A stretch of 64,000 bases of DNA from Moniliella sp. 'wahieum' (taxonomy: Eukaryota), in assembly GCA_003971905.1 (NCBI GenBank), contig RSEE01000050.1, positions 124,001 to 188,000 on the forward strand, given 5' to 3'. Position numbers and translations under genes: made by a program. Within the stretch, counting starts at the first letter, position 1; every line of letters starts with the position of its first letter. This document shows, piece after piece, positions 5,667 through 57,668 of this stretch. Under the pieces are notes generated by a model. The model was not told the DNA's origin. It did not search any database and worked only from the letters and a program-made list of their open reading frames with translations.

Positions 5667-7023
5667 GGTGGTGATATGGGATAGGGATGGGACGGTGGTG
5701 TGTTTGGGTGGGGAAGGAAGGAGGAGGAAAGAGAAATGATGAAGCTAGGAAAACCGGGGCGGACGGGGGGGGGGGGGGTAGGTGCAGTCTGCGGCTCAAT
5801 GAGAGTTGCCCCAGTTATCCTGATGAATGAATGTTGTGAGCGCACCCACAGTACCTATGGGAGGGCCTGGGGCAGTGGCGGAAGGCGTGCCTGTGGCAAT
5901 GAACTGTGCACGGGCCCAACACCCGCTGAGAAGGCGCGATGGCTGGGAGTAGCCACAGTAGCTGTCTGTCACGGGAGGACCATCAATAGACCGAGGTCTG
6001 AAGATCTGAGAAGACCTGCGGATTCGACAAAAAGTCTTCTCATCTTAGTTTTCGGTGCGTGCCTGGGGAAAGGAGACACGCTGCAAGCGCAGTCTGATGA
6101 TGGTTGGGGGCATTTTAAGCTCACGTTGAGTAGGTGGGGAGACTACCCCGAACTGCTCGAGAGAAGGCTCTCCTCAAACGCTTCCAGATTCAATGGACAG
6201 TGGCACTACTCGTACTACTTGCCGTGCGCTGAGGCGAAGCACAGACCACACACTACTTGGTATAGTCGTCACTCGATAGTCCAGCTAGGCCGTCTCTGGT
6301 GGCCATACTCCGTCTCCGTCTGGCAGATGATCTGATCGGTCTGAGATCTAAGATCTGAGATCCAGAGAGAGACAGCGCACCTGGTCCGTGTCCTATTGTT
6401 GAAAGTTGTAACGCCACCGCCCGTCTTGCATCATGCATCATGCACATCATGCATCAGAACTTAGATTCATCAGCCACCGCGTTCTACAGATGACGTCATC
6501 TGAGCCTGCTATGTTCACAACAGGCTAATGCGGAACTGAGAACTGTGGAGCCTTCGGTTGCTGATGGCGCGCTAGGCCTCTGGCCGAAGAACAAGGCGAT
6601 ACATGCGGATGCATCAAATGACAGAAGACAGCTTTTCAGACTATGAGAGCAGCAACCGATAGGTTGGCACGTTCGGGTGCCAGACACTACTGTCTACAAG
6701 GCACCGCAAGCGTGCGAGGAGAGAAAACCACAATCTTAATACGATACGAGATACAAGTATCCACAGTAATACCACCACCATTTTTCTTGTTTTGTCCTCT
6801 CTGCAGTGGATGGGACGGGGAGGAAGGACTTAGGTATTAACATGGCGGGCCGAAGGCCCGGGAACAATCCGGGGCCAGCACAGGCCACAAGCCACAAATG
6901 GTTACTGGGCAATACGCAAGAGGACGGGAAGGAGGAGAGGGGCGTCAGTGTGGATGACGTTTTCGACTGAAAAAAGCGGGATGCGAGATGGGCAGGGAGG
7001 CATGGAAAGAGAGGGGGTGTGGT

Positions 7024-8346
7024 TCAATAGTTGTCATCGAACCGAGGATCATAGCGAACATCTTGGCGATCATAACGATCGTATCGAGCACTTTGGGCCT
7101 GCGCGTCCCGTGCGTCCCGCGCCTCGTACCGCGTGTACGCTGAGACGCGTGCATTGGTCTGCGACCGGACTGAATTGGTCCGGACGGGAACATAGGCTTG
7201 CGTCACACCGGGGGCGGGAATGACTTTGGAGGCGGAGGCGGAGGCGAAGCCGGTCTAGGAGTAGGGCTGGATAAGCAGTTTGGGCATAGGCAGTATCATA
7301 CGCCTCTCCACGTTGATAGCTCCCGTGGGAGGGCTTGCCGACCGAGTTGGTGGTCGGGTTGGAAAGGGAAGTAGAGCGTGTGGTAACGTGTCGTGCTTCG
7401 ACGTCCAGTCCGGATCGAGAGGGGTAGGCTCGTACTTCCTCCTTCGAAGACCATAGCAAGATCGGCCTGGTTCGCAAGCGGCCACAAGAAGAGAAAGATG
7501 CTGACAAGCGCACAACTAAACGCAGCCCAACTGAGCCAGACGGCATTTCCGTACTCAAGATCAAACAGCTTGTTAATCCGAGCGGATTTGAGTTCATCAC
7601 GAAGGATGCCCACCATCGCCGTCCAAATTGTCGCACCGATGCCGAGTAGCACAACAGTAACGAGGCCAACCAAGGAAGAGAGAAAAGAGCAAACGCTCCC
7701 CGTTGAGCAAACTCAGGAGCCAGGACACGCCAGCCAAGATGGTGCTAATGAAGAAAAGATAAAAAGTAGCGCGAGAAAGGTTGGCAAGCCAGGTTGAATT
7801 GGTAAATTTGGTTAGCTTTCCCGGATTGGTGACATTGGATGAGCCTTCATTCGAAAAGATATGGGCCAAGGGGTACTCAAGCTGTCGTTTGATCCATCAT
7901 CGGCACCCAGCGTCTGCGCTGGCTCGAGCGGGTGGCCAAACTCGTTGGAAGAACAAGACCGGTTGGAGCTACCAGGACCTGCATCGCTCCCGCAGACGCT
8001 GTACATTCCCCACCAATAGTTATACCGTATTCCGTTGCCGGCGAGGAGCGCGGAAGACTGATTGGAGGCAAAAATTTGTCGCACCTCGCTGGAATCTCCA
8101 AGGCTGGTAGCAAACCCAGTAAGATTGAGGTGAGCGAGGTAGATATGACGCTCGACTGGGCCGGTGCCGATCTGACCAACATTGACAAAGATCATGAGCA
8201 CCATGGCGGCGCACATGAGGAAAGAGCCTGCGACGAGATAGGTCCATACGATGAGAGAGGAGGGGGAGAGAGGTTAGCGCCTGTTGTCTGTTCAATGTGG
8301 GCCCACAGAGATACGCACCCAGCCCGCAACAGACACCTCGCGGCAT
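7024..8346 (-). CDS. SUR7/PalI-family multi-pass membrane protein with low-complexity C-terminal tail (probable short first intron; frameshifts)
   Basis: N-terminal TM segment (CAAMVLMIFVNVG), claudin-like YNYWWGMYSVCG...C loop motif, three further TM helices and YGNAVWLSWAAF, followed by a Pro/Arg/Asp/Tyr-rich tail. Confidence 0.8.
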
Positions 8347-9843
8347 TGTGGAGGTGTGGAGGTGAATGAGTACTGAGTAATGATGGCAGTGTAACTGACT
8401 CCCGTCGAATCTTCTTCTTTGGGAAAGGCAGAGTAGCAGATTCAGGGGCCTCAGGCCTCAGACAGAGACCATGTCGCAGTCCAAGTAGAATCCACCAGAT
8501 AGCTTCACAGAATCGGAAAACCGCGTGAATGTTTCAACAGGTTGATTTCTACCCCAGATCTGGTCAGAGTGGGGGTATTTTCACACACATGTGACACGCG
8601 ACGTCACACACAAGGTATCATATCATGCATCATGCACATGCATCAACGCCACTGGAGAGGCACGCCTGCCGGTTGCTGGGTGCTGTGGCTGCTCCGCTGT
8701 GCGTCTATCAGGTCTACCTGGTCTACCCCAGTGCTACCCCAGTTTCTATAACAAGCTGAGGCCCCCGACGCAGACACCGGTTTATGTATTCAGGGCGATC
8801 CCATATCCCCCCGCTTGTTCGCACGCGCTGCGGCCAACCACATCATGGCATTCGCCTACGGCCTGCTTGTTCGGCATCAGTGAGTCAAACTCGCCAATGC
8901 CGTCTCGTATATGATGGTCTCGGCGATGCCCACGCCCGCATCGTCCTGGGGCCTTCGCAGCTTCCGCAGGTGCGCTGCGAATACATACCTGGCTCTGGAG
9001 ATGGTGGCGCGCATACCGGCTTCCCACCGCACAGCCCACCTTAGATCCGCGGCAGTGGACCATTGTGCGCAGTATCACATTCAATTTGGCCTGCGTGCAT
9101 GCAGCATGCAGCATGCAGCATGGAGGACCCTGGGTTGGGGTACACTGTCCCCATGCTGCCGCCCCTTGCGCCCACTGCCCCAAGAGCCTCTTCAGTCGCT
9201 CAGGTGCAGCGCCTCGCTGAGCCTCAGGGAGCATCATGCATCCAACGCCGTGCATCACCGGTCAGCTCGTGTTTGGCGCTGACGGCTGACGTCCGTGCGC
9301 CCGCCACCGCCTCGTATACTGGCGTGTTGCATGGCAGGCCGGCCCGCGGCCACCGCTATCGCCGGCGGTCGACAGGAGAGCCGACTGGGTGCAGTGGCTA
9401 GTGGACTATGGAGCACCAGCCCCCCGGCGCCCCATCTGCTGAGCGCCTCACAGCGCCCAGTCTCATCATCGTCAGCGTCAGCGTCATTACCAGCATCAAA
9501 ACGTCCTGCACGCCCTCACTTAAAACACAGTAGCCCCACAGGCAGTCAGCGCAGAAGGCCAGCGGGCCCCAGCAATTCATTCCTCAACTGCACATATGCA
9601 TCCTGAATCATTCCCTCTTGCCACCTCGGCTTTCTCTGTTGCCCCCCGTGCTGCCTGAAACAGCAAGACATCCTGCGCCCAGCCGCTCTTTGGCCGCAAA
9701 TGGGTCCCGCCATGAATTCGTCCCTGATTGCTCGGCCCCTCACTGTAGCCTTATAGGCCTTAGGCCTCGCCCTGTTTATCCTCGTCCTTGTCTTCCCACC
9801 TGAACCTCACCCCCCGCCTCACCCCCTCCACCACCACTATCAT

Positions 9844-11534
9844 ATGAGCCAGCAGTCCCCACTCCCTGGCAACGGCAAGCTCGCATCCGAGGTCGTCATT
9901 GTCGTGCTCGGCGCCTCGGGCGATCTGGCGCGCAAAAAAACATTCCCGGCCCTGTTCAATCTGTACCGCCTGGGCCTGCTTCCTGCCAACACGAGCATCA
10001 TTGGTTACGCTCGCACCCGGCTTGACCAGAAAGCCTTTCACGACCGCATTTCCAGCTGTTTCACTAACGTCGGTTCTCCCCAGGGGCAAAAGGCCGCCCA
10101 AGCCTTCCTCGAACTCACGAGCTACACTCCCGGCTCGTACGATGACGATGCGGCATTTCAAGTGCTGGAACAGCAGATTCGTGCCATTGAGACCGAGCGT
10201 GGCGTGAGCCAAGGAGGTTCTCATCGTCTCTTCTACATGGCTCTTCCACCTAGCGTGTTCATCAAGGTGGCAAGCCACCTCAAACACAACAACTATTCTC
10301 CTACTGGCTCCAACCACATCATCCTCGAAAAGCCATTTGGAAAAGACCTCGAGTCCTGCCAGGCAATGCTGGGCGCACTCAAGCCGCTCTGGAGAGAGGA
10401 CGAAACATTTCGTACGTATTTTGGGTGCACTTCGTTGGTGATGGTCTCGTTCCTGCATTTTCCCTCCTTCCGCCTACCCTACCATGAACTGACCAGCGCC
10501 ACACCTCTCTCCTATATCAGGTATTGACCACTACCTGGGTAAGGAGATGGTCAAGAACCTGATGACTGTTCGCTTTGCCAATCCCGTCATCGAGGCGACC
10601 CTCAACAACAAGTATGTTTCCAACGTACAGATCACGTTCAAAGAGCCCTTTGGCACCGATGGTCGGGGTGGGTACTTTGATGAGTTTGGTATCATCCGCG
10701 ACATTCAACAAAACCACCTCTCTCAAGTCTTATCGCTCTTTGCCATGGAACAACCCAGCTCGCTTAGCGCCAAGGCGATTCGGGACGCCAAAGTTGCCGT
10801 TCTGCACGACATTCCGCCCGTCACACAGCAAGACGCGCTGCTGGGGCAGTACGTGGCGGCACAGGGCAAACCTGGGTACCTAGATGACGCCACCGTGCCA
10901 GACAACAGCAATTGCCCTACGTTTGCAGCGGTGGCATTGTGGGTGAACAATGCACGGTGGCAAGGAGTTCCGTTTATCCTCAAGGCGGGCAAAGCACTGA
11001 ACGAGGCCAAGGTGGAGATCCGTGTGCAGTACAAGGACCCCGACAGCAACCTCTTCTCTGGCCCCCAAGCGGAGGAGCTGATGCGCAATGAGCTTGTCCT
11101 CCGGATCCAGCCAGGCGAAGCCGTATATGTCAAGGTGAACGCCAAATCCCCAGGACTGACGTATGACCTGGTCAACGCCGAGCTGAACTTGACGTACAAG
11201 GACCGTTTTAGCTGGTGTGCGCATCCCCGAGGCGTACGAAACCTTGCTTTACGATGCGTTGGCAGGAGATCACAGCAACTTTGTTAGGGACGACGAACTA
11301 GAGGCCAGTTGGTCCATCTTTACCCCGCTTCTTCATGCCATTGATCGGGGTGAGATCAAGCCAGAACCATACGCGTACGGGTCAAGAGGACCCAAGGCAC
11401 TCAACGACTGGATCGCCAAGTACGGTTTCAAATACGAAAATCAAAACTACGATTGGCCTACAACCGACGTTCGTCGCCGCCGCACCTCCTCCCTGGCTGC
11501 CAACCACTTACCTGCGCATTGGGCGCCCTTGTAA
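9844..11534 (+). CDS. ZWF1: Glucose-6-phosphate 1-dehydrogenase (intron 10412-10520; one frameshift near 11215)
   Basis: GASGDLARKKTFPALF, EKPFGKDL, spliced RIDHYLGKE, GRGGYFDEFGIIRD, PEAYETL, FVRDDEL. Confidence 0.98.
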
Positions 11535-12779
11535 TTCTCGTTTTGTGCTACACGATGTGCTCATGTTGACCATGCGTAGGAACCCCTTGTGGGCCACCCT
11601 TTTAGCCGTATAGCGAAAGCATCCCCACCGGGTGGTGGGCACCATCTTTGGCGAGCACTAGAGCGAGAAGTGGATCTTCCATTGGTATAGCAGTCCGCCT
11701 ACAAGAAGGACGCGCCACGGAATTGGAGAGGGACCAAATTGTGCGTCTTCTTGGAAACGACACACACCCTTTCGTCCTTTCCCAACCCATGACCAGGGGA
11801 CTTGAACGGATGAGTCCCTTCTGTAGTGATGATAGAATGCTATACCTGGATGAAATGGCCCGGAAAAGAGTGACTGCCAGGAATCGGAACCAAACCCTCC
11901 ATGCAGTGGCTTCGCCTCTTGGCCAGAGAGGCGGAACCGCACTACACTGTTGAGAGCCGGGATAGGAGCAACAGCCCTGGTGTATCACTCTGGCACTGTA
12001 CTTTCGAACAGTCCCCGCAACGACATCCTTGACTGGACGTAGGCTCTATAGTAGGCCGGTTTAGCACGGAAAAGTCCTCAACCAGGCTGGCAGGACGCGG
12101 GCGGGACCAGGTTGCCAGTCTCGCTCGTGAATACATCGGAGCATGTCAGTCGGAAAGGACAACCGATGTGTGGGATTGGGCCATCTACCGCATGCATCGC
12201 ACGGAGAGAAGAGTGTGTTCGACACAAGCGGTGGATCAATGACTAGCTCATGACTATCGATTAGACCGATCATCGATCATCGATCATCGCTTATCGAGCG
12301 ATCCCTGATGTGGGATTAGTCATGTATCACGCGCCACGCATCCTGTGTGTAGCAAAGGGGGCAAGTGTGGGGCGTATGAGACGCGGCGCCCTTCAGTTGT
12401 GTGTGGGGTAGTTCTTATTAACTACTGGGAGTAGTATTGAGCTCAGGTGCAGGCACCGAGACAGTGTTACGCCGTGCGTAGCCGCTGGCAGATGTCAAAA
12501 GTCCAAGTTCAGGCTGGCACATGTCCCGTCGCCCACTGGCTGAAAGAGCTAGGAAGGGCCTCCGGAGCAATGCCGAAGCGGGATCGATTGGGGAGACATG
12601 AGAGGGAAAAGCGAACGTAGAAAAATGTCCCCAAAGGCGCAGGCAGCCGGCGCGAGGCTAATCTCCACGTCACAGGTCACACCAGACTGCAAGAGCCGCT
12701 GGGCAAAACGCTCACCACATGGCCACAGGCCGAGTGTCCCACCGCATCTCTTGCCTCCCCACCACCACCAACGGAAACA

Positions 12780-14300
12780 ATGTCCGCCAATCCGCCGGGG
12801 TCGCTTTCACCAGTCCCGGACTATGTCTTCCAGGCGGTGGAGGCGAAGCAACCGCCACGCCATCTGCTCACCTTCCTCGTGCGCCTTGTGGTCCTCTACC
12901 TCCTCTTCCTCATCACGATGCCATTTCTGCTGCCCGTGACCTTGATTTCCAATGCAGTCCCCTCGCTGCGCGCCACAAGGAGTTTTCTTACAAGACAGCT
13001 GTTCTAACTGCGCTCCTCCGCCATCTGATGCCCTACTTCCTCGTGAGCCGCTTCTTCCCGCTACCCTACGAGGAAGATGAAGGGTGGACGTCGACCTTGT
13101 TGGGTGCCTGGTTCGAGCCTTTCTTCCGCCTGATTACGTTGGGAAGTGTCGGTTGGCCACTATGGAGTACTTCGTGGGGCCTGATTCCCGTCGCGCGAAG
13201 GGATCGGGTATGGGTCGAACCGCCCCCGTTAGAATGGATGCGGGGCTTCCTGACCGTTCGGGATCCTACACGACCGGCAGAAGAGCAATGGGTCACTTCG
13301 CCCTTGTACTCGGGCCCGCCGTTGGTTCGGCCAGCCTTTGCCCGGCGCAAGGTGGCGTGCTATTGGTACTTGTCTCGTTCCACCACCCTTCCGCCCAATC
13401 CAGGCCCGGCAGTGATGCTCTATGCGCACGGGGGCGCAGGGTTGTTATTCGCCGCTGGAGATCCGTTTATGGGGTGGACGCTAGGGCGGACATTGGCGCA
13501 AGAGGCTGGGATTGATGTTTTTTCGGTGGACTATGATGTGGCGCCGTTTGCTACCCACCCAACGGCGGTTGTGCAGTTGTTTGCAGCGTACCTCTACCTC
13601 TTGCGGGTAGGCTACCACCCGTCCCAGATCTTTTTAGGGGGCGATAGCTTTGGTGGTCTCCTAATCCTCCACCTCCATCGCTACTTGACTGACGTTTGGC
13701 CCCACCTCAACGTCCCTTCCAGCTCCTCCTACCTTGCTCTGGACCCGAAGGCCTCAAAGGCAGCAATCGACGCCAAGGCCGAATCAGACCGGCGCCTGCT
13801 TAGCTCTAACCCACACGTGAACGTGCCAGGCATCTTGCTCCTCAGCCCATGTCTCCACATTGGGGATACCGGCGTCCTTTCCCGTCCCGCCGACCGCGAC
13901 GCACGACTACTTGGTTGCTAGTGTCATGCGGATGGGGGACGAGAGTGTTCGCAAAACGATTCCGGTCGAGGTGGGGAGCAGTGCTTGGGTCTCCCCGCTG
14001 CTGCTTCCGGAGAAGGAGGTGGCGCGGTTACCGCCCTTGTGGATTGGCAATGGTGGGGTGGAGCAGTTGTTGGATGAGGGACTGAGCTTAGCAGACAAGG
14101 TCAGGTCAGTCAAAGGCTCGGTCGAGCATCATCTCGCTCCTGGTATGCCGCATGATTTTTACTCCTTCCCTACCGAGCGAAGCATGGCCGTGCGCCACTA
14201 CCGCTTGATCCATGCTTGGCTAAACAAGTGCTCGGCAGCTGCCAAAAGCTCCGCCGAAACAGCAGCTTCCAGACATTTACCAGGATCTGTTAATGCTTGA
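12780..14300 (+). CDS. Alpha/beta-hydrolase of the hormone-sensitive-lipase-like family with an N-terminal membrane segment (frameshifted)
   Basis: LYAHGGAG oxyanion motif, SVDYDVAP, nucleophile elbow GDSFGG, LLLSP, and a C-terminal GGVEQLLDE / GMPHDF region containing the catalytic His. Confidence 0.88.
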
Positions 14301-15066
14301 GCACAAGAACCGATTTTTTGGCTTATCTATCCCAGGAGAAGATGGAGTATATAGGTGCACTGTGAGCATTCCGTTCCAAAGGACAACAGTTGTACGAACC
14401 AGGTGGGAGCCCATGGTACTAAGGTGACAGGGTCGAGAATGCACCCAAAAGAAAAGTGTCCCTCCACGTCCCCTTCCATCATCAGTCTCTTCCCTGATCT
14501 AGCATCTGTTTTGTATGTCGTAGACTGGATCTACTTTCCCCTGCCCTCTTTGGTCACAGCTATATATGCTTCCCTCGAAGCGCTACTCCTGGTATAGACC
14601 CACTCTGACAGCTCTGCCATTGTGCATGCCGCACTCAGTACAATGTGCCAATGATGACAATGTCTACGCATCCATCTAACCCACTTCTATATGCCTGTGC
14701 CCGACCGACCCGGCCCAGGTGTTTGCTACTGCCCCATATCACACGGATCTGTGCGGCGTGAGCTACTAAGCGGTATTTTGCATTTGATGCGGTCGACATG
14801 TGATAGCGGGCATAATATAACCCTTCCACAGCAGCATCTAGTCATGTGCCCCGCCTGAAAGACACCCTCAATACCAGCCGCTCTCACGCCCTCATGCTTG
14901 CCCCCCGTCTCGTCTCTCCAACCACGGCGCTCGCCTTTCTTCCCTCTCCCGCTCAGACCACCGCGCGCACGCCCCACATCCCGTTACTATATATACTAGA
15001 GTCCTTCTTTTTCTTCCACGCGCTCTGCTCTGTCGAACCGCTCTCCCCCCCACCCGACGCTGAACA

Positions 15067-17806
15067 TGTCGTCGACGTCCGAACCATTGCTTACGCTCCA
15101 TGCCCCCTCTCCTGTGGGGATCCGTCTGTGCGGCCAGTCCCATTGACAATCTTCGCGCTGAACCCAACCGAGGCAGTCCAGGTGCGCATCGCATCCGACA
15201 TCCGCTTTTCGCTCCAAGCCGTCGACTCTTCATCAGATGGCTCAAACGTACTCTTTACGAGTCAAACTGCTGCTCAGCTCAATGCGTTTCGTTCCCTCTG
15301 TCGCTTTTTCCTCCATCATGACATGCTCGTCCTTCACTCCTCTCCGGCTACGTGTGCCGATATCCAGCTCGCCCTTGTTCGGGGGCAGGCGCGGGATGCA
15401 CAACCCACTCCCCCCCCAACACCATCCATCAGTATGTACCCCTTATCAACGTAATACTTGTGATCTTGAACTTGAGACTGATCAGCACTACCAGGCCAAT
15501 TGTGGTACAACAGCAAGCCATTCACCTTTCCGGCCGCGGTGGTTCCCTTTTGTTGAGTGGACATTTCCAGGTGTCGTAACCTTACACTTGACCCCAGTAG
15601 CAAATGAAAACGAGCACGGCGCGCTGCTCACCCGCTGGACGGAGCAGGTCCCGGCTGCTACTTGGCCTCCCCGCTCTATCCCACTGGACCAGGGAGGGTC
15701 ACAGCCGTGGCGCGCATGGGCCATGCAAGCGCCCATCCTCCTCTTGGGATGGGTGGTGGCCTGGTTCGCAAGTCCGGGTCCGTTGTATGCACTGGCATTT
15801 CCTTCCGACCGTGTGCTACCCCAAGCTGAAGACAGCCCGTTCACCCCTCCTAGTCCAAATGGAGAGGGCATCCAGAAGCCGGGCCTCCTCACTCGGTTGG
15901 TTCATAGTGCACTGAAGGCCTTGTGCGCGATCGCACTCGGGTGAGGTTCCCACGCGTCCGCCCCAGTAGGGGGGTTGGCCACAAATGTTTTTCCATCTCC
16001 CCTTGATTTCCCGGCAAAGTTCAGCAGAGGAACGAGCGGCCGAATATGCAGCCAAGATGGGTTTGACCCGTCCAAAGATGCAAGAGAAGGCTTCCAATCG
16101 CTCCCCTCCGAAACCTTGGTTGCGGATTCCAGCCCCAATTCAGGTGTTTCTGTCACCTCCAAGGAGCCCCCTTCGCCTGTGGGTGTGGTGCAATTGCAGC
16201 AGGGGTCGATCCCAACGGTTTCACTAGCGTCCTCTGGTCCAGAGGGCACACAGAACCAAAACGAGCAAACACAAGAAGAGCAATTTTTTCCTCCTACCTT
16301 GTCGTCCATCACGAAGCAGACGGGGGAAGAAGGTGGTGATGAAATTCAGCAGATCGTCCCTTTGGGCGTGCGGGGTCGTCACTACTTGAGGACAGTCCTG
16401 CCACTCTTCCTTCAAGCATGGAGAAATAGACGGATCAAAAAACAGGATGAATGCGCCCCCGTCTCATCCTTCATTTGGCTGGAAGGAAGCAGCCGTACGG
16501 GACTGGACACCTCGCGTACCCTTGGGTGTAAAGAATGATCGGATTTGGGGGTATATACACAGCAAGACCGACCCTGCTCAACAGGTGAAAGACGATGAAT
16601 TTCCTCCCGGTCCAGTTCAAGTCAAACAATTCCCTCGTCTCCCCTTTCTGAATCCCTATGGTGATGAAAGCTTTCAGGACAGTTGCAGCATCACCCCTTT
16701 AACTTCTGCAATGGCACAGGAACGACATTTGCCCCTGCTTCCTCTGTCACACGTACATGCGAGGAAAGCAAGCTATTTGGCCGTTGTACCTCACTACTAC
16801 CCATGGTGGAAACAGAACCAACCTTTGTCCTTCTTCTAATGGCATAAGAAGGCTTTCTTCCTGCCAAGGGACAGGGACCCAATGCCATTTTCGTACTGTG
16901 CGGTGATCCATCCACTTTTGCTCCAGCGGCTGGCTCGCCAACGGCGGTGGACCCCTTTGTTGGTCATACGAATGGCGGTAGTACACCCGCTAATACCAAG
17001 GCAACTGCGTCTGATACGTCTTTTACATCCACTACGTCTACCAAAACGGAGCAAAGCTTCAACATCGAAAACTCACCCACTCTGTCTGGCTCAACAGTTG
17101 ACCAGAGGAAGTGGCGGGGAAGAGTACGTCGGTTCCTTGTGAAGGATGGATTAGTGGCCGCAAAAAGAGACTAGCGCCTGCTCTCATCGCAGAGGGTAAA
17201 CGGTATTGGGCCCTCCACCAGCCCGTACAACAGACGGACTGGAGGGCACCCTTATTTTCCCTGTCGAGTCGCGCGTGGCCCACGTATTACCCCTATGCTA
17301 TTGGTGGTTGGTGCACGCCAAGTCGGGGCCGCACCTCCGCCTGCCGAGGAGAAACGCGTTCATATGACTAAGATGAAGTGGAAGAGGGCTATCTCGACCA
17401 TGTGCTCGCCAGCACTAAGCAGCCAGAGGAGGCAGTGGTTTCGGTTTGCTTGACGTCCTCATCTCATCCAGATTTAGACTCTATTGGTCCCATACGGACG
17501 ACTGTGGCTTCATCGGAAATAGGGTCACCACCTCAAGTGGAGAAAACCCAGCGTGATACGGCCGGTACGCTTTCCTCGCCCGTTTTGGATGGCTGCGCTA
17601 CGGCAGGAGAGCAAGAGGCCACTGAAGCCGGCCCGGACACTCATGGGGGTGAACATGGGCCTGGCCATCCCCTCTCCACGGCTGGTCCACCGCCTACATA
17701 TACCGGACTAAGCCGTTCATCCAAAAGGGAAAGAACCGGTCTGGGTCTGGCGGACGAAAGGGCAAGAAATCCCGTGGGAAGCATTAAGGAGATCGTTACA
17801 CCGTAA
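15067..17806 (+). CDS. Hypothetical protein(s), largely Ser/Pro/Thr-rich; boundaries and gene number uncertain
   Basis: Chain of same-strand ORFs (14846-15454, 15237-15944, 15975-16538, 16447-16839, 16947-17174, 17378-17806) with a plausible GTATGT...CTGATCAG intron near 15432-15485. No family motif recognised. Confidence 0.45.
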
Positions 17807-18842
17807 TTTAGCTTCCTCAACAGGCGATTATCGATCTGAGCCTCGGGCCCCATAAGACAGTTCCTTTTGTTCCTAACTCTCTTCTTGACTCCCTTTCACC
17901 CTACCCTATCATTCACACGCCTCGACCGTGCGTCTAGATTCGTTCGCCACTGTGATATACCTGCCTGTTTATTGAAGATTGTTGATTCTCGTACCTGTAT
18001 CTTCCGAAGTAGCTTGTCCGGCTCTAATTGTGCGAAGCACACACAGATGGGCCCGCCTTGCTCGCGTGATTGATTGTTCTGTGGATGCTGTCTCCCAGAG
18101 GGGCACCTACCTTTATCCCAGCATGAGAGCAGCAGCAGCCCTATAAACGGTATTAAACGTCCGCTCCTTTCTTCGTATCTCGTCTGAACTGGGTAGTACC
18201 CCCAGACGCCTTGGCTGATTGGGTAGTGTCCTTTAGCATAACGTGAATAGCAAGCGTCCCTGCGCTAGGGCTGAAAACGTGACCTCCCTGTAGACCATCC
18301 CGCACACATTTCACAACAGGAGATTGTATATACACTTGCGCCTAATTTTTTTGTCAGTGTGTTCCTCCATTGGATGGCCTTTTACAATGCACAAACAGGT
18401 GGTGGTCGGAGTGTGTTTTGGCCGCTACGTAATAGCCACCCCCCAAAAACTGCTTGTACGGCCTGGCCTCTTTTCTCCTCCTCACACTGTTGTGTATATC
18501 GCAGGTCACACACGTGAGAGGCAGGTTAAAGTACAGCACACGTCGATCTTTGATGGGTGGGCTTGAAATTTGAAGGATGATCGATGATGCAGATTGATGC
18601 AATAGAGAAGGCAGTCGCAGAGCCAGAGGTGGCGGGGCATGGGGGGGATATATAAATTCGTAAGACGGCTGGTTGGGTCGACTGCAAAGCTCTCAGCTTG
18701 GCAGCGTGATTTGCTGTTACATGGTATCGATTATCGATCATGCCCCCGCCTCTTCTCTCTCTGCATGTGGCCGACAGGGCGACGAGGATGGTCCATGATT
18801 GATTCGATTGAATATTGATGGTGGTGAGTTGCATGAGTCAAG

Positions 18843-19590
18843 CTAGTCACTAGTCACTAGTCATGATGCATGTCGGTCCGATGATTGAGATGATCAATGA
18901 CGCTGACGTCGATGACATGTGACATGTGACAGGTGCCAATGTGACATGGACCTCTCGACGACACGATGACATGCGTTGGCTGACCAGCTGACTCGACCGC
19001 ATACCGCAGGAAGCAACGAGCCCATTGCCCCGCCTGGGCGCCAAGCGCCGAGACAGGTGCCTGAAGCGTAATGCACTACTGCCAAATCAGTCTACGGACC
19101 TATACCTGGGTTAGATCTTAGATCCTAAGCCTTACAAATTCAAAGCAAATGGTTCAATTCAACGTTCAACGTTCAGTTCAAGTTCAACGTTCACGCTCAC
19201 GCGTCACGTTCAACGTGTATATGCAGGCCCCACGCTAGGACAAGCAAACAGGCTGGGACCTCCGCCTGAGGCCGGAGGACTTGGCTCAGGCGCTCAGGCC
19301 TGCTGATCCCGGTGGCAGGAAGTACAAAAAGTACTGAGACCCAGTGCTCAATATGCATGCTTGGCGTCCCTGTCACGTGTCACGTCACAGGCCACATGTC
19401 ACAGGTCACATGTCATACTGCTTGATGCTCAATAGCATTGAGGCCAACATTTGCCCCAAGGAGGCACACGAAGATGGATGGAAAAGGGGTGCAGCAAGCC
19501 ACAACAGCCACGCCGGGGCTAACCAGCAACTATAGCTAACTACTTGGATCAATCGATCAGGCCTGAGCGCCTGAGCCTCAGGATCAAATC
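18843..19590. repeat. Cluster of heptamer micro-arrays with different cores
   Basis: (CTAGTCA)3 at 18843-18863, (TGACATG)2 at 18913, (TCAACGT)2 at 19159, TCA-CGTG/CATG/CAGG at 19372-19415, degenerate GGCC/GCGC units at 19260-19300 and 19557-19582. Confidence 0.8.
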
Positions 19591-20161
19591 AGAAGTGGAG
19601 AAGACGCATCTAGTCGTAGGCAAAGAAGCACTAAAAGTACAAGATCATCGATCTGGGAACAGTTTGAATTGAGACCACACAGGTCTTCGGGTTCGTTCGT
19701 TTTCGTGACGCGGACAACTGGAGCCATCCTATCAGTGTATCAGGTATCTGGCCTCAGGTCTTTCCTTGTTCCTTGGAAGGTTGGCCTTATTAGTTGGAAT
19801 GGAAAGAGTCCGACCAACGATGATCGATGAGGACCCAAAAGCAAACGTCTTGGTACGAGGTGATCCACATGACATAGGGTGGCAGGCGCGGCACGCATCG
19901 AAAGGGGCTTCAGAGCATATCGTGTTTATGATGCTCTTTGACAGCCTAGACGCTTGACCAGTTGGACCAGCTTCAGCCTGACCGCCAGCTCCTCCACCCT
20001 TCCTTGCGCGTCCGTGCCCCAAACGATGCGCATGCATGGGGAATTGTGTCGCAGACCCGAGTCCGTGAGGCTCCAACCAACGGCGAACGAGAATAGCGGA
20101 ATAGTGGACAAACAGGGTTGGGCCTCTCGCTTGCCATGAACAACACGACTGCATGACAAAC

Positions 20162-21132
20162 CTAGATAAGCCTGGCGAGCATTGGGGTGCAGCCAGATGG
20201 GTAAAGCAATGAGGCGGGCTTAAGGCTTCGCCGTGCGCGGACATCCACGATCCGTTCCACCCAGTCCGTAGGCGCACCTTCACGGATGATATGGAGACGG
20301 TAATGCCTGCGGGCATCGTACTTGCGTGCGAATGCCTTGTGGCACGACGCATCGGGACAAACAAACGGCCGCGGATGGTCGGGCTCATGGACCGTCTCGT
20401 GTGCCAGGCGGTTGTAGTTGCGGGTAAACACTTTGCCACACTTGGGCACGGGAAGCGTGCGTCCTGGTTCCGTCTCCGAGGGGGCGAACGCCGCACCTTG
20501 CTCCGTCGTGCCGAGATAAGCCAGTTGCCTTGCTCGACGCTGCGCTCCTTGTACGCCCAGCTGTAGAGCCAGGACTACTGGGCGCAATCGATTTGCCCTC
20601 GGTCAAGCTCGGCGTCGCCGCCGTGACCGTCGCATCCTCTCCACTCTCACAGAGAGAAGGCTCTAGCCCCTCCTCCTGCGTAGGCGATTCGATGAGATTC
20701 AGGGTTGAGACGGAGGCATTGTCCGATGTGCCTGGGAAGGTAGCACTGGTAGGTGTCATGGTGGTAACCGAAGATTCATCCACCGTCTCTGCCAGGGCTA
20801 AAGAAAGGTCAGCTTCGTGTCGTGCACAACACTAGACACTCAAGAACGTACCGCAGCCAACTCGTTCAATGCTGTACCGGTAAGCGGGGAGAAGCAACTG
20901 CTCGAAAGGGGCGGTACGGTAAAGGCCGAAGGGGTGCAGCGCACGACTCGCCGAAACCGAGGGCAGGGGGGAGTAGGAGGGAAAAGCACTGATGGAACGG
21001 CGGAAATTATAGGCAACAGCAAATCAAACATGCTTGCATTGGTATTCTGAGGAGGTTGGTTGGGGTGGGCAGGAAAGAGGTGTTGGATTGGAGGAAAGGG
21101 TTGAAAGACGAGGTGGTCGTCGGTGCTTGCAT
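20162..21132 (-). CDS. C2H2 zinc-finger transcription factor with two fingers (start codon uncertain; intron ~20798-20851)
   Basis: CGKVFTRNYNRLAHETVH-EPDHPRPF-VCPDASCHKAFARKYDARRHYRLH, preceded by a Ser/Thr-rich region. GTACGT donor and CTGAC...TTTAG acceptor are present. Confidence 0.85.
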
Positions 21133-26120: not shown

Positions 26121-26160
26121 TCAAGCTTCAAGCTTCAAGCTTCAAGCTTCTCAAGCTTCA
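26121..26160. repeat. Heptamer array (TCAAGCT)n, the longest example of the intergenic T(C/G)A + 4-mer arrays
   Basis: TCAAGCT x4, TC, TCAAGCT, TCA read directly from the sequence. Confidence 0.9.
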
Positions 26161-26351
26161 AGTCTCAAGAGCGTGTCACCACACGTCACGCCGAGCGTCA
26201 ACACAGTCGCTCCTGCCAAGCCAATTGCACTCCAACTCCGACACATCGAACGCCACAGGCGTCTGAACGAACTGAACGGAGTACGGAGCCCCTGGCATCA
26301 GAATGATCAAACTCAAAGGAGTGATTGATTCAAACCACACATCCCCCAATC

Positions 26352-38227: not shown

Positions 38228-38865
38228 GCAGCGAGCAGCAGATGGGACAAAGGGCTGTGATGGACTGAGTGGACTGGTGGGACTGGTAGTCAGGCCAGCG
38301 GTTGTGGGGGGAAAGGGGGGGGGGTATGTGATTACATACACCCGCCTCCTGCGCCACCTGGGATAATCGATCAGTCGATCAGGGTAGATTAGAATTCATC
38401 TGTTGGCCAGGGGAGGTTGGGGCTGGTTGGGGGCATTTCGACCTTGATAGAATCCATCGTTTCTTGTAGACGACTTCCGCATATCCGCCGTCGACCGCCT
38501 GACGGCATGAACATAGCGACTACATCCTCGTTCTGAGTGCGGACCTTAGGCCCGTCGAGTTTGATACTCACCCAGAGCATCTACCACGCTCCCTTAAAGT
38601 TATCCTTCTGTGGTGATCAGAGGTTTTGTTTCTTCGCTATCTTGTTTCGTGGTATGTGAGACTATAGTAACCGTTTCCCAATTTCATCGATCGTCTCAGC
38701 GAGCCCGCGGTGTGGCTGAGATGGTTCCGTAGCCAGGCTATAACGTAATGGCACAGCCTGAGAAGACTGGTCGCACAGGGAATGAAGGACAAAACGAGAG
38801 TGTGATGAGGACAGGGTAGGATACGGAACACAGTAAAAAGAGTGGTATAGGGGGGAACGGAAAGC

Positions 38866-41277: not shown

Positions 41278-43628
41278 AAGACCATACCGGTTACGTACGC
41301 ACCCGCTCCGCCGCCTTTATCTGTTTTCGCTTCTGCCGCTTCCCGCCTACCAGAGAGAGAAGATTGTGCGGTTCGCCATGCCGAGAACGGTTGCTTCATC
41401 TACTCCGTACCACTGTTTGTATCGCTGGAACGGGAGAGAGCAGCCTCTTGAACTTGTCAGAACAGCACACCCATTACTTGCGTGTGTCCGCCGACGAACT
41501 AAAGCTGCGCGTTACTCGACTCTCTCCCTTAAAATAAAGTGTGGTTTTGGCCATTTGATGGCCGCCTCACACACGGAAAATGAAGCACGATCATGGATAC
41601 AACCGAGTATGTAATGGTAGTGGCATCTATTCTCTCGCTGAGGTGATAGATTCAATCATAAATTCCAGGCGGCCATGCTTCCTTTTTCTCCTTGTAGTAT
41701 CCCGTGATGTCCCTTTAATCCGTCGAACCGACGCGATTCTATTAGCAGTGGGGGGCAGTATAAAGAAAGGCGTCCCTACGGATAATATATGAAGTGAGGA
41801 CGGCATCAGTGTTTTGTGCCGACGGGCGCCCAAAGCTCAATGAGCTTACTTCAAACCATACAAACCCATATCAGGTCGAGAAATTTCGTTTTTGTGTTTG
41901 GAACGCACAGGAGAGAAGAGAGGAAACGGTTTGGGAGAGTGTATATATATGTGCCATTAAACAAGCGTATGTAAAAAGGGGATTGCTTTGTATTCCCATG
42001 GTATTCATTCAGGCTGCATGGATTGGTGCCCTATATACCAGAGGAAATGGAGAAGGAATCACACGGTAAACGAAGAGACACAAAGGGGTCTCAAGGAATC
42101 TAGAACAGAGGGTCATTCGCTCAGTCGGTGGATATGTGTGTATGACATATGTTGACCGTTGACCCGTCAGCGTATGCACCTTTTCTCCTCAAAAAGAAAG
42201 ATCAAGTCGCAAAGAAGAGGGATGAGCTTCCCTTTCGTGTAAAATCTCTCGTCATCATCTTCCGCCAATGATCGATGTACCACACCATTCGTCTTTTCCA
42301 GAAAAATCGAGTGTCCATTTCCTACAACACACACACATGCGTTTATTGATCGAAAGCGTGGACGCCCTCTGATGTATGGCTGTCACATGTGGTGCCTTTT
42401 CCACCTGAATGGATGGCAGGCTCGCAACCTCTTGTCCTCGACGTTCAACTTATGTACCCGAGGTTTCTCCAAAGCATTGAAAGGATGCGTAAAGGGGTAA
42501 GGTAAAGAAGGAGAGTATACTTGGTGATTATAATCATGGAGAATCATCCCTTTCTCTTCGCCTTTTGTCAAGCATATCAATCGATCGAATGTTGCAATCG
42601 CTGAAAAAGCAGGTATAGTATAGGTTTAAGTTTTAGCCTCTCATAAGCTTTTTTTGAAGCTCTTCCTCTGTTCTGTTTTGTCTGTTTTCTGTGTTTTGTT
42701 TTCCGTGCAAGGGTTCCGCAACACGTTGGAACCTTGAACACATATTGAAAACATCAACACATCAATATCGAAATTCCCCTATTACGCGTTGTGTCGGCGA
42801 CTCTCTCCCCAAGGAATCACTTGTTGGGGCGCGGCGTTCCCCCGGGGACATGAGAGGAAGGGGGTTCCTAATTATATACAACACTCTCCCCACAGGATCT
42901 CGGCATGTACGCGCTTTGTTATTACGATGGCGAGATATTGGGGCGAGTGAACAGGAGGTTCGGTGGACTCCAACTGCTGCTGCGCGTACCCTAGCACTTG
43001 CTGGCCCCAGTGCGTCGGTTCCACAAGAAAGGACGAGCTACGCCAAACCATACCCCAGCCGATCCTATGCCCGACTTGGATTCGACGGGTCAAGCTTCAA
43101 GAAAGCGAGCGCGGTAATCTATGAAACAGAGCGGCGACTTGTGACGTCATTGGAGGAGACACTGTCCCTGTGCCTCTTGCTGTCGGCGACTGGGCGTTGG
43201 TATCGGGGATGCTGACGCATGGTGCCTGAGATCTGGTGGGTGATGCGTACGCCGTGCCGGCGATGAACTCGGTGGATCTATACCCTCCTACGCGAGGCGG
43301 TGGCCGACGCCAGAGGATGCAGCACCACACCACTGTGCCGCTGACCAATGCTCACCATTGGCCCATGCGGACGTCGATCTGGGGGGGACGATGGCCCGCG
43401 CAGATCTTAGATCTTCGTAGTCGCCGTGGCCCCGCCGCCACTGAAGAAGGCGTTTGATGCGACGGGGACCACAGACTGCCACAGCAGGCAAAGCGGCCCC
43501 TGCGGCCCCCCGCGCTGGCCGCCCTCACGCTCGCGTATTTATTCATCGCCTCTCCTTGGTTCCCCTCCCCTCCATCACACCCCAACCTTCCCTCCTCCCC
43601 ACACCAGCTGCCCCAGCAATCACTAGCC

Positions 43629-47850: not shown

Positions 47851-48894
47851 GGCTTTCATAACGCGTTCGGTTAGACGCTTGGAAGTGCGAGGTAGATGTG
47901 GTTGGTGGGTGAGAGGCAGAAGGAACAAAGTATACAAAACGATTGTGGCATCTTGCCCAACAGTCGGTTCTCTCTCTCCTTTATATATCAGAGCACCTGA
48001 AGTTGTTGGTCGTTCACCTCATAACGACCCTCCCACCGTTACATCATAGTAGGTAGGATGGGATCGGCCCAATGGGAGGGCGGTGATTCTCGATCCATGC
48101 ACCATGGTCAACAACGCGGGCTGCGGTGAGGCCTGAGGACTCGGGCTGAGGCACGGCTGTGTGAGGCTTTTGAATTCAAGTGTGTTACCGTTAGCGTTGC
48201 CATAGGCCTAACGCGACTGCAAGGCATGTCTTGCGGCCGTGTGCGCGGTAGGGTGGATGGGAGATACGGCCCATGGCTACCCTGAGGCCAAACGGGCCCT
48301 CTGCCTCATCTTCCACATGAGTAATGCAGACGTCATGATGATGCAGTGATGACGCTGTATATACTGAGTGTACAGAAGGAAGCGAGCCGCGAGCACCCTT
48401 CAGACGGGAGTGTGGCGAGCAAGAGAGATGAGTTCATCGCTGGCCTCAGCACAGAGTGCATTGGGAACGCATCACCCCTCTTATCCGCCCGGACGCTCCT
48501 TCTGCTCCGCGGTACCCTCGGCTATGCAAGGCCCTACCTTTCTCTCACAGCCTCCTGTTCCTCTCCAGGCTCAGAACCACATCCTCCGTTCTTCTCCTTC
48601 CTCAGCACTGGGTGCTATGGGTCGATAAGACCCGGTGTAGCTGGGGGATCCTCAGCACCCTCCGTGTGGTTGATCGATCGACGCACCGTAAGCGGCCGTG
48701 ATGCACGTGATGACTGCTGGCTGCTGGCACTTGAAAGTTGCAACACGCGAGGCGGGGTGGTGCTAGGGTTGGGCGTCGGCCGCATCGGCGGGTGCTGGAT
48801 GCTCGCCGCCCGTACGTGCCGGCCGCGGCAGAAAGAGAAAGAAAGAAAAATTGCAGCCCAGCAGGCGGCCCGTCCTTCGCCATCCTCCACCACC

Positions 48895-54056: not shown

Positions 54057-54689
54057 CACACGAAGCCTTCTTCGCGATCCCTTTGCTTCTGCACCTCCGT
54101 TTGCTTCGATACGGTTTCGTTGATTACCGTTGTCCTTCGTTCCTCTTCCCTTTTTTCGTGTAGCCTTTGTATTTTTGCCCTTCTATCTACACACTTAAGC
54201 ATCCCCTCTTGTTCGTTTTGGCAAGGTGCTAAAAGGATCGCTGGCTTCGACTGTACCCACGCAGACGCTCCCGTTGACTGAAACTGAAGAACCGAAAAGT
54301 GGGAGTAATGAACGTGCTTGCCCGAGATGGTGGCCGCGGTTGCCAGGTGCGACGGGAGTTCAGAATGGGCGAGGGTCGAGCTGGGCTAGCCCGTTCCGTA
54401 CTGTGTCCGGGCGAACATGCAGCCTTGCGTTGTAACATTGTGAGAGGCCACTGAAAGGAGAGAACTGTGGTTGAACGTTGAGAGTTTGTTGGCTGGCTTC
54501 AAGCTTGATTGCATTGCCCGGATTGACTTTTTTGCTAGATGAGATAAACAATACTTCTAACTTACAGTATACCTTGTCAAGTGACGAGTGCTAGTGACGC
54601 TGGACACACCGCCTGACATGCTGCTGACAGCTTGAGTATATATATGTTGGCCATCACGAATCATATCTCGGCACCTCTTTCCAAATAGC

Positions 54690-57400
54690 GAACTTAGCCA
54701 CCGTTCCCCGGTCCGCCGTCGCCACCTTAGCCACCGTTCCCCCGGTCCCCTTCGCCACCTTAGCCACCGTTCCACCGTCGCTACCGTTCCACGCTGGACC
54801 CCTTCCACGCTGGAGAGGGCAAATAATATCACCGATTCTCTGGCTGCGGTGGCTGGGGACGTGGCACCGGTCGGCACGTGCCTATGACGCAAAAGTGTGC
54901 AAAAATCGCACCGCCAATCTTATGGTCACCAAGGCCGACCGCCTCATTCGGGAGGGCTGTCTCAGCCGCGCAGCAAGTACCCTCGTCGGCCAATCCACCA
55001 TTGCCCCTCTCACCCCCGAGACCCAGGCAAGCCTGGAAAAGCTCCACCCCGTTGGAGAGGCGAACCCCTTCAGCCTCGGCCCGGGCACAGCCTTTGGCAA
55101 CACCACCCCGCACTCGTCCCACCCACACAGGCCGCGTGGTACCGCCGGGCACCACCCTCACCGACACGACGGACAGTGACCGCATCGTGGTGGACTTGGA
55201 CGAAATCGACTTTGTTGCTTTGATTGCCACATTCAGAATCGACGTTGGGGCAGGTCTATCCGGGTGGACCCAGCCCCTCCTAAGAACGGCCCTTGAAAGC
55301 AAGCGCTTCGTCGCCTTTCTCATCGCCCTCACCAAGAGTATTTACCACGGCACTGCCCAGGACGCGAGCTCCTGTTGGCCTCCCGCCTTACCCCCCTGGA
55401 GAAGGCATCGGGCGGCATCCGCCCCATCGCCTGTGGGGAGCTGATCTACCGCCTATGCGCCAAAGGCATCGCTCGAGCGATCTCCCCCAACAGCTGGCTT
55501 CTCCCCACCCAGTTGGGAGTAGCATCGCAAAACGGGGTGGAGCCTATCGTACGGATGGTCGAGCGCATGACAGCGCCAGGCGGGGAGAACGATGCGGAAC
55601 TGGGCGACTTCAGCCACGTCGCCATGCTCGACTTTACCAACGCCTTCAACACTGTGCGCCGTCGCACACTCGCCAAGGCGCTCCATGCTACGCCCCCCAT
55701 CTCCTCACCTTGGGCCGATGGATCTATGGTTCCCCCACCCAGCTTTGGGTCGCGTCGGCGGAAATGAGACCAGCGTCCTGTCGGCAGAGGGCGTACGGCA
55801 GGGCGACCCCCTCGCCCCCTTTTTTTCTCCATCGCAGTGCGGCCCACGCTAGAGAAGTTGAGCATTGCTCTGCCGGGACACCTGGTGATGGCATACCTGG
55901 ACGACATCACGATTTTCGGTCCAGAGCCAGGCATTACCGGCCTAGCCGCGGAGATTTTGGAAGACGACGCGTCAGGCCTCAAGCTCAACCTGCGCAAGTG
56001 TGTCGAGCGGGACCGGGATCAGATTCGGGAGGATGGTCTGCAGGTTCTGGGCACTTGTGTGGGAGGGGTAGACTGTCGTCGATCGTGGCTCCGGGCCCAA
56101 CTGGCCGGTCTGAGGGAGAACATGCCTAGTTTGATGGCATCACCCGCCAGGGACGCCTCTTACTGTGGCGGCTCAGCACTCAGACCAAGCTGCGCCACCT
56201 GCTCCGCACCATGCAGATGGAAGGAGAGCTCGACGACGTGCTGGCCGAGATTGTGCCTTCATCTGTACGGAGTTCAGACGGATCCGGGGCGACGAGGATC
56301 CCCAAGGTGCCAAGGACGACCACTTCGACATGCTCATGAGCCTGCCTCTCCGGCTGGGAGTGGCAGCCCGCTTTACTCGTATATCGCGCCCCACGCCCGT
56401 GCCGCGGCCACGAGGTCAACGACTATCTTATTACCACTTATGTTGACCGTTCGGGACCGCAAACGGCAAGGGCCAACGCATTTACGAAGCAACGCCAGCG
56501 CTGCCGCGAGATGTGGGAGCAAAGTCGACAGGAGCTGCTCCAGAAGCTGGACGCTGCCGATGGTCGCCATGTGGTTGAGCACAGCAACCCGCTGAGCCAC
56601 AACTGGCTCTCCGCCATTCCATCCGTCCGTACCTCAAGCTCTCTGACCAGCAGGTCCAGGTTGGTCTCCAGCTCCGCACGCTGTGCCGCACCACGCGCAG
56701 CATGTGCAAGTGGCGTCATGTCCTCGCTGGAACACATCATGTCCTGCACCCGCACCCAGGCCAAGTTTGGTGCGTTGCATGAGGCAGTGCGGGAGCCCAT
56801 TCTCCAGCTCCTACGCTCCATCCCCGACACCCACGTCCACAACGAACCTATGGTGGAGGAAGAGGATGGGACGAGGCGGACGGAAGGCACAGCGCACCGA
56901 CTACCGCGTGATGGGGCCCGGAGCCACTGGGAGGAACCGGAATGGAGGTAGACCATACGCTGCGACGACGGGATCGCAGGAGGCGCAGAGCGCGTACGGC
57001 GGGGGTGCATGAGAGCACTGCGTCGCCTTTGGAACGCCGGGAGAAAGGAACTGCTTCGGCTGCTTGAACAGCAGAATGCGACAAGAACGCCAAGTACCAG
57101 GGACGCACTCAAGAAACGTTTTCCCCCCTGGTTTTGACGACGCGAGGATACTACGGCACCAAGACGGCGGCAAGTTGTTTGCGCACTGGAAGGAGTTGGC
57201 TACTAAGTCTCAGTGGAAATGGTTCCTCGCTCGGATGTCAACCACGTTTCCGTGTCCACACGCGCTTCCTAGGGTACGGGACCGGATGGCGAGAGCCGGA
57301 GGGTCCTGATATCCTGGCGATCCCCTGGTTCCTTGACCTTAGTGGCGCTTCCAAGTTAACCCCCGCAAGATGAACGGTTCGGTTTAGACGTAGCGTTCCC
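54690..57400 (+). mobile_element. Non-LTR retrotransposon, CRE/SLACS-like clade (RT + CCHC finger + restriction-like endonuclease); ends not defined
   Basis: LEKLHP, RLTPLEKASGGIRPIACGELIYRL, QLGVASQNGVE, LDFTNAFN, GVRQGDPLAP, YLDDITI, GLKLNLRKC; then C..C...HIMSC, HEAV, EP, RTDYRV, KYQ. No APE domain and no LTRs were seen. Confidence 0.85.
54693..54793 (+). repeat. Three copies of a 33-bp tandem repeat (CTTAGCCACCGTTCC...)
   Basis: Units start at 54693, 54726 and 54759, just upstream of the RT ORF. Confidence 0.85.
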
Positions 57401-57668
57401 CTGTCCCAGCCTTAAGCTTTTGTCAATGAAATGGACGTGATATGTAACATGTAACATGAACCGCAGTAATTTTCGTTTTTCGATGACAGGCTGACGAAAG
57501 ATCGAGGGCAATGCAGATGGTTATCCCGGTGAAAGTGGCCGTCGATCTCGAGGTCATCCGCCATATCGCGCTCAGCCTCAGTCCTCGCTGAGGGGCTGAG
57601 CCCCAGCGGCGACCGGTGTCAGGTAAGGTGTGACCTGTGAGTGACGGGCACGCAGAAGCTGGAAGCTG

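Follow-up and report, generated by a model that had tools for sequence, protein, structure and literature searches.

What writes short tandem arrays that share one architecture at unrelated loci and differ in sequence from locus to locus? This question is raised by a 64,000-nucleotide stretch of the genome of Moniliella sp. 'wahieum' (assembly GCA_003971905.1, contig RSEE01000050.1, positions 124,001 to 188,000; in our numbering G000:C50:124001-188000), hereafter the window. A sequence-only reading had described a 7-bp grammar in its intergenic DNA, in which a T(C/G)A spacer alternates with a locus-specific, usually palindromic 4-mer, and all 13 of the arrays it listed are present where it placed them. 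The grammar is a by-product of a single insertion rule, by which two bases beside a TNA triplet are extended by their own reverse complement and the triplet is repeated. The pattern is real and genome-wide, and we read it as hairpin-type excision footprints at exceptional density.

In the window, 37 perfect period-7 tandems stand against 4.1 after a local dinucleotide shuffle, and 21 of the 37 units consist of a 6-bp palindrome plus one base (0.5 in the shuffle), in agreement with the excess and the palindromic cores proposed earlier. In 60 other stretches of 10 kb each, which together with the window form the 664 kb used for the tandem-period, palindrome-spacer and run-length statistics, 159 of 362 period-7 tandems have such a unit, compared with 5.0 of 47 in the shuffle, and periods 5, 9 and 11 show no comparable excess (223/954 against 161.5/628, 2/72 and 1/14, respectively). 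The supposed preference for period 7 holds for the palindromic class, which has no counterpart at periods 5, 9 and 11, but period 6 is commoner among the short periods (656). Of the self-complementary period-7 arrays, 180 in all, T(C/G)A lies at the centre of 143 and T(A/T)A at that of 23, which gives 166 with a TNA centre; most arrays thus carry the spacer originally described, but the true spacer is T-N-A, with N at background frequency. Where four bases separate two TCA, the spacer is palindromic in 398 of 784 cases (background 5.8%), and spacers of two or six bases are palindromic at chance (26% vs 25% and 2% vs 1.6%).

The rule is stated for a site xy-TNA-ab, where cd is the reverse complement of ab and y'x' that of xy. 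The right-type product reads TNA-ab-cd-TNA-ab, and the left-type product is its mirror on the xy side; the 4-mer is palindromic and locus-specific because it equals two neighbouring bases plus their own reverse complement. The 12-mer, junction, stacking, terminal-inverted-repeat (TIR), paralogue and location statistics come from a 1.064-Mb sample, consisting of the window and 100 stretches of 10 kb at fixed positions on 51 of the largest contigs (labelled L0xx). Maximal 12-mers of the form TNAab-cd-TNAab number 178 against 2 in shuffled sequence, compared with 167 against 114 for the same form with other starts, and their distribution over TCA (72), TGA (58), TAA (24) and TTA (23) matches the abundance of these centres. 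Identical palindromes flank TCA on both sides 183 times (13.0 expected), whereas two different palindromes do so at expectation (158 vs 151.8); the pattern therefore arises by copying. The distribution of run lengths has one peak at 12, in two phases (47 and 36 vs 0.8 and 0.5), and a further one at 19-20.

At sites not already quasi-palindromic, the junction abcd is found 235 times and y'x'xy 232 times, against about 2 each in the shuffle, whereas the control centres GNC, ANT and CNG yield at most about 8 of either. Left and right products are equally common. Products with such palindromic (P) bases occur 122 times per 10,000 strand-sites at TNA and 1.5-5.7 times at the control centres. Both N and ab of the insertion site are nearly free; the middle base is retained in 899 of 994 cases, and every ab dinucleotide except TA is used. 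Depleted products are TATA (0 vs 17), AATT (4 vs 19), GCGC (17 vs 37), GGCC (19 vs 32) and ATAT (13 vs 22), and AGCT and TGCA are favoured in this sample. The earlier remark that no 4-mer is A/T-only fails on two left-type products in the window, ATAT at 18807-18818 and AATT at 26022-26033, though this class is depleted. In a minor class, the middle base of the second TNA is complemented (C<->G 42, against 10 for the four non-complementary transversions), possibly through hairpins opened further from the tip. Older copies decay by transitions.

Longer products carry bases of the opposite flank. Where one extra base separates abcd from the second TNA, it equals y in 78 of 107 cases (27 by chance); where two do so, they equal xy in 50 of 96 (6 by chance), and 38 of these 50 are not followed by cd. 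Longer suffix matches are rare (3/19 at +10 and 0/30 at +11). The +9 product, xyTNAab-cd-xyTNAab, contains the complete 7-bp duplication and two P-like bases. Computed from the site counts of the junction tally, its rate per 10,000 strand-sites is 6.5 at TNA, compared with 0.45 at GNC, 0.42 at CNG and 0.90 at ANT (7-15x), and that of the +8 product is 10.2, compared with 0.6-1.1 at the control centres (9-16x), whereas TNA shows no enrichment of plain 7-bp duplications (19.6 vs 12-24 per 10,000). These products fit a target-site duplication (TSD) of 7 bp centred on TNA, as read from the footprints rather than from an element. A TSD of 5 bp that leaves P bases at both flanks was rejected, since cd+N'A accounts for only 14 of 462 cases.

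Diverged copies of the same sequence show sites before and after such events. The stretches L062 (contig C13) and L079 (contig C30) align collinearly over 10,030 columns, of which 246 are substitutions. Three differences concern such sites, namely a left-type +7 event at AT-TGA-GC (gain ATAT-TGA), 15 bases at GT-TGA-GG that equal one +7 event on the left and one +8 event on the right, and six bases that fit a left event minus one base. Furthermore, a repeat pair resembling long terminal repeats (LTRs) shows a left +7 event at TC-TGA-CG, with a gain of GATC-TGA. Seven seven-base indels are listed in 118 repeat alignments, six of them distinct by eye; two follow the rule by script, one more does so with one transition, and three do not fit. 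In the empty alleles, the TNA is present and the palindrome is absent. With 3-4 events per 246 substitutions, in a single pair, the insertion rate is about 1-2% of the substitution rate.

After merging, 539 loci are found in 1.064 Mb (about 500 per Mb), 31 of them in the window, which extrapolates to about 35,000 footprints in the genome. Per 100 TNA sites, there are 0.16 loci in coding-like DNA, 0.21 in intron-like gaps, 1.2-1.9 in convergent, 1.4-2.6 in tandem and 2.9-3.0 in divergent intergenic DNA, so that coding-like DNA lies about 18-fold below divergent intergenic DNA; none of the 31 perfect loci in the window falls within a coding-like segment, in line with the confinement to non-coding DNA first noted by eye. 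Gene context was assigned with a self-trained codon model that is rough and gives noisy strand calls, and the bias toward divergent intergenic DNA (promoters) is indicative only; selection may contribute to this distribution. Neighbouring loci at most 100 bp apart are twice as frequent as under random placement. Among 467 first events on both strands, 46 carry a different palindrome across the same TNA, and in 38 of the 46 this palindrome starts with xy, the prediction for a second event of the left type. Overall, such second-palindrome 10-mers amount to 2.1% per TNA site.

The arrays are probably stacked excision footprints of a cut-and-paste element that makes a 7-nt stagger on xy-TNA-ab, centred on N. 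Insertion would duplicate xyTNAab, as the +8 and +9 products suggest, and excision would close each flank as a flush hairpin, in the manner of RAG, a step to which the even-centred palindrome points. A putative nuclease of the Pso2/Artemis type would then open each hairpin 2 nt 3' of its tip, in keeping with the geometry of the junctions. In the cited passages, the cut made by Pso2 and Artemis lies 2 nt 3' of the hairpin apex (PMC3299998), and the dominant product of Artemis opening is a 4-nt 3' overhang (PMC2175297); the genome contains one match to DRMBL, the Pso2/Artemis family. Each opened end would carry a 4-nt 3' overhang that is self-complementary (ab-cd for the left end, y'x'-xy for the right), and on both sides the duplex would stop at TNA. 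End joining would keep one overhang whole, together with 0 (+7, the main product), 1 (+8) or 2 (+9) bases of the other, which are the products observed. The footprint would thereby retain two TNA sites, the new one inside a 7-bp quasi-palindrome, as is partly seen, and later events would add units in register or write a second palindrome across the TNA; slippage may lengthen the arrays. Hairpin-related repair, which the earlier reading had offered as a separate option, is the right chemistry for the junction.

Several known systems resemble this scheme in part. In Tc1/mariner elements such as Sleeping Beauty, the footprint is TA-C(A/T)G-TA, with a constant filler from the element ends. A duplicated target with a short filler is common to both, but here the flank is the template of the filler, which differs from locus to locus, and the TNA pre-exists. 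The P-element superfamily has TSDs of 7-8 bp. It was rejected as a source, since its filler is element-derived and the filler here is flank-derived, and PF12017 has no match; PIF/Harbinger (3-bp duplication, DDE_Tnp_4) was rejected because the duplication here reaches 7 bp and PF13359 has no match. V(D)J coding joints, as described in the passages cited, share the even-centred palindrome, in which the two terminal bases of the flank are followed by their reverse complement, and the opening by Artemis 2 nt 3' of the tip with a 4-nt 3' overhang (PMC2175297, PMC3299998). However, both flanks here are copies of one 7-bp TNA-centred site, the junction is far more uniform with P bases kept on one side, whereas most coding joints lose theirs, and the events are heritable and genome-wide.

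In the case of hAT elements, Ac/Ds in plants, budding yeast and Candida albicans likewise combine target duplication with a palindromic filler and hairpin-capped flanks, and Pso2 is involved in Ac/Ds excision repair in yeast, according to the part of the source cited (PMC5873905). The hAT palindrome, by the same partial account, is odd-centred, on the complement of the element-adjacent base, whereas the centre here lies between b and its complement; the TSD of hAT is usually 8 bp. Footprint chemistry of the hAT type was therefore rejected, as the reverse complement follows directly after ab (178 vs 2) and the odd centre is not found. The basidiomycete elements hAT7 (rust fungi) and Kyakuja (Laccaria) share a TSD of 7 bp, and the +9 class shows the 7-bp duplication of hAT7, as judged from footprints, not from an element; the main-text passages cited give neither a TNA consensus nor footprints (PMC12730594), and the present genome, like the control genomes, has no hAT-dimerisation or KDZ match. 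The CMCT clade (EnSpm/CACTA, Mirage, Chapaev, Transib, Plavaka and ESTA) contains relatives of RAG1, in the portion of the review cited (PMC12730594), and flush hairpin chemistry is plausible for it. The junctions show the flush hairpin signature of RAG/Transib, with two P nucleotides from a +2 opening, and point to CMCT-clade relatives of RAG. The Transposase_21 domain of EnSpm/CACTA has two matches in the genome, one over the cut-off (C17:557095-557541) and one below it (C34:514908-515195), and their link to the footprints is putative; PF13960 has no match. The passage on CACTA that is cited mentions footprints and does not give the junction chemistry (PMC6379663).

Several observations weigh against a mobile element of this kind. 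No TIR element with an NN-TNA-NN duplication is found in 1.064 Mb, where a TIR search with 5-9-bp TSDs returned only solo LTRs with 5-bp TSDs and chance pairs, and none with CA..TG ends flanked by a footprint-type duplication was found there. The duplication of 7 bp exceeds the 2-5 bp described for RAG/Transib and the CMCT clade in the section cited (PMC12730594), and Ac/Ds footprints are less stereotyped, with 28 types in 128 revertants in the part of that study cited (PMC5873905). Joining would have to drop the P bases of one side nearly always, in view of the +10 and +11 counts. The scheme does not explain why the same site would be preferred, as two events at a single TGA within 2.5% divergence require. 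The control triplets share the y/xy suffix enrichment as a fraction (GNC 15/26, ANT 7/10); since ordinary duplications produce the suffix effect at these centres, it is the per-site rate, not the fraction, that discriminates TNA. Finally, about 35,000 extrapolated footprints face only two Transposase_21 matches, a lower bound. Few elements are nevertheless compatible with many scars, because each move would leave a scar without adding a copy. Seven further families have no match in the genome, namely PF05699 (hAT dimerisation), PF18758 (KDZ), PF12017 (P transposase), PF13359 (DDE_Tnp_4), PF18759, PF13960 and PF10551; for five of them, including the first three, the control genomes are silent too, whereas a control genome did match PF13359.

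Other repeats were also noted. The solo LTRs (L025:8975-9828 and L038:414-1281) have TGTCAC...GTGACA ends and 5-bp TSDs, and L052 carries a 3.4-kb inverted duplication (1-3443 and 5847-9288) of 99.4% identity. In the window, two near-identical 314-bp direct repeats surround a 5.36-kb segment (57667-63660 in all) with perfect 22-bp inverted ends (57981-58002 and 63323-63344) and long frames without a Pfam match; its relatives lie in L016 and L085, with a 117-bp mini form in L069. This inverted-repeat-bounded element (57981-63344) was rejected as the source, because the seven bases before its end are not NN-TNA-NN in the window, L016 or L069. A 5.5-kb segment of contig C9 that is absent from the window was likewise rejected as an element, being an ABC-transporter-like gene.

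One alternative to element movement keeps the chemistry and assigns the breaks, 7-nt staggered and hairpin-capped, to a domesticated transposase or an orphan nuclease of the host that cuts TNA in open chromatin. It would account for tens of thousands of footprints beside almost no detectable transposase, for the lack of an element in 1.064 Mb, for clustered loci and repeated use of one site, and for intron-like gaps that are near-empty compared with the DNA between divergent genes (0.21 vs 2.9-3.0 per 100 TNA). A 7-bp duplication with hairpins at both ends would, however, need prior gap filling, which an insertion-excision cycle supplies, and we consider this alternative unlikely. Template switching or snap-back synthesis in the course of replication or break repair, in which a polymerase copies to ab, turns back over two bases and re-primes at the upstream T, matches the product as a direct plus inverted copy of adjacent bases, and the C<->G swaps of the middle base indicate occasional inverted copying through TNA. 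The strict requirement for TNA, the chance-level counts of analogous 1+1 and 3+3 palindromes and the record of both flanks of one 7-bp unit in the +8 and +9 products make it distinctly doubtful; we know of no such fixed geometry for template switching.

Ordinary slippage favoured by hairpin-forming self-complementary heptamers is largely refuted as the origin and is very improbable. The arrays are near-perfect inverted repeats, and the 203 of 362 period-7 tandems in the 60 stretches that do not follow the rule exceed the shuffle (42), so that slippage is active and may extend arrays. However, (TCAAGCT)x3 has 1049 overlapping matches genome-wide, and neither its reversed control nor (CCGAGCT)x3, equally self-complementary and without TNA, has any; 166 of the 180 self-complementary arrays are TNA-centred, and first events add two reverse-complement bases to alleles without a palindrome rather than a direct copy, which bears out the initial judgement that slippage is insufficient. 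In addition, among at least 120 metagenome loci picked for a CATG array, the 12-mer of a second type is rare (AGCT 1, TGCA 3 and CCGG 1 of 120), compared with 45, 46 and 39 of 100 loci of this genome, the metagenome loci being shorter (about 0.43 Mb in total); no second carrier appears among the metagenome loci listed, with three of 16 palindromes tested, and uniqueness of the signature is not implied. Another origin suggested at the outset, selection for arrays bound by a protein that recognises T(C/G)A half-sites with a 4-bp spacing, would suit the clustering and the enrichment between divergent genes. With different palindromes beside one TCA at chance, N and ab close to free, inserted bases dictated by their neighbours, and sites that differ between copies 2.5% apart, this origin is highly improbable, although later co-option of single arrays for binding stays compatible with the data. 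An artefact of sequencing or assembly is scarcely credible, since neither the coding versus divergent-intergenic contrast of about 18-fold nor transition decay in older copies and allele differences between paralogues is expected of an error process. As for the element first imagined, with a 4-bp TSD, TCA...TGA ends and three terminal bases left behind, the idea of stacked excision footprints remains the best reading, but its geometry is wrong and has practically no probability. Two-copy arrays can be written as pal-TSA-pal. A 4-bp TSD should produce 11-mers that begin with the palindrome; these number 14 against 4.5 and show no phase peak, and N can be any base and comes from the site itself. 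The model also requires the palindrome in the unoccupied site, and it is refuted because the empty alleles have the TNA and lack the palindrome.

Within the window, the arrays vary in length. A left-type array of GATC units (6340-6362, xy = TC) has one TNA with a deviant middle base, and a TGCA array (6429-6456) holds two perfect loci, 6429-6442 and 6445-6456. Further arrays are those of TCGA (12268-12288), CTAG (18845-18863, 19 bp as 5+7x2, and 24067-24080), CATG (18913-18931, 19 bp), CCGG (22296-22314, 19 bp) and AGCT (24672-24688). The longest in the window is an AGCT array at 26119-26169, with one 9-bp step (26142-26155) that would be a +9 junction had the site been TC-TCA-AG. A CATG array at TAA (57443-57456) stands at the end of an interspersed repeat (55772-57441), which is common to L089 and L077 (87-93%) and ends right at the array. 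A three-locus cluster at 19159-19208 comprises an ACGT array (19159-19175), a second ACGT locus (19182-19193) and CGCG (19197-19208).

Right-type products are represented by GTAC (8367-8378, single), TGCA (8623-8634, 23216-23227 and 25725-25736), GATC at TTA (19111-19122), CTAG (23821-23832), AGCT (43090-43101) and GGCC (48127-48138), and left-type products, besides the two A/T-only ones, by GGCC (8449-8460, single, and 24976-24987), TCGA (18576-18587 and 19819-19830), CCGG (21952-21963), AGCT (23635-23646) and ACGT (54470-54481). Two +8 products were read from the sequence, a full 7-bp duplication of GCTCAGG with one complementary base between the copies (19284-19298) and CC-TGA-GC-gc-c-TGA-GC, that is ab, cd, then y (19562-19576). 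A third (38369-38383) adjoins a 7-bp unit with a deviant middle base, the two together spanning 38362-38383 on the minus strand. Two self-complementary repeats lie outside the rule, a 9-bp duplication within the FKS1 region at 3924-3942 and, at 9097-9122, an array of (GCATGCA)n with CAG at its centre. The segment 25386-25580 is a degenerate piece of a many-copy, LTR-like repeat often paired 5.35 kb apart, and Rfam gave no match in the window.

Intron-containing genes of the window include FKS1, G6PD, UBA1, HSP90, catalase and XPG-family genes. Among the named matches of a UBA1 exon, Tilletiaria anomala is best (64%), followed by Jaminaea, Naganishia, Ceraceosorus and Meira (59%), which suggests that the fungus is probably a basidiomycete related to the smuts. 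The assembly comprises 69.5 Mb in 223 contigs and contains at least three diverged copies of the window region. The part 8000-27900 has two syntenic copies, on C9 and C38, with coding parts 76-84% identical, and matches to 8000-41000 lie at about 64-110 kb on C9 and 532-556 kb on C38. Given these copies and the closer C13/C30 pair (2.5% substitutions), the assembly looks polyploid or hybrid. The C9 copy (L035:1400-6900) carries the ABC-transporter-like gene, with Walker A motifs in translated frames, which is missing at 38228-38858 of the window and which we read as lost after duplication.

Taken further, the excision-footprint reading would make the source a RAG-like, CMCT-clade transposase with a 7-bp TNA-centred stagger, domesticated or permanently active, that acts as a promoter-directed mutator; it would revisit its sites, insert at about 1-2% of the substitution rate, be the main source of intergenic heptamer repeats and write V(D)J-like junctions in the germ line. 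This extension is speculative and, on present evidence, rather improbable. The sequence-only reading knew of no description of the pattern, and none was found in the literature searched, whose scope excluded most subscription papers and Repbase reports; the papers cited describe no transposase of the predicted geometry, with a 7-bp TNA-centred duplication and flush hairpins. The footprints constitute one readable mutational signature at roughly 35,000 sites, by extrapolation, and would let hairpin opening and end joining be followed in vivo in a natural fungal setting. Vanished cut-and-paste elements would become countable from their scars, which can seed a whole class of promoter microsatellites, and, with at least three diverged copies of the region in one assembly, the rate and timing of these events are directly testable.

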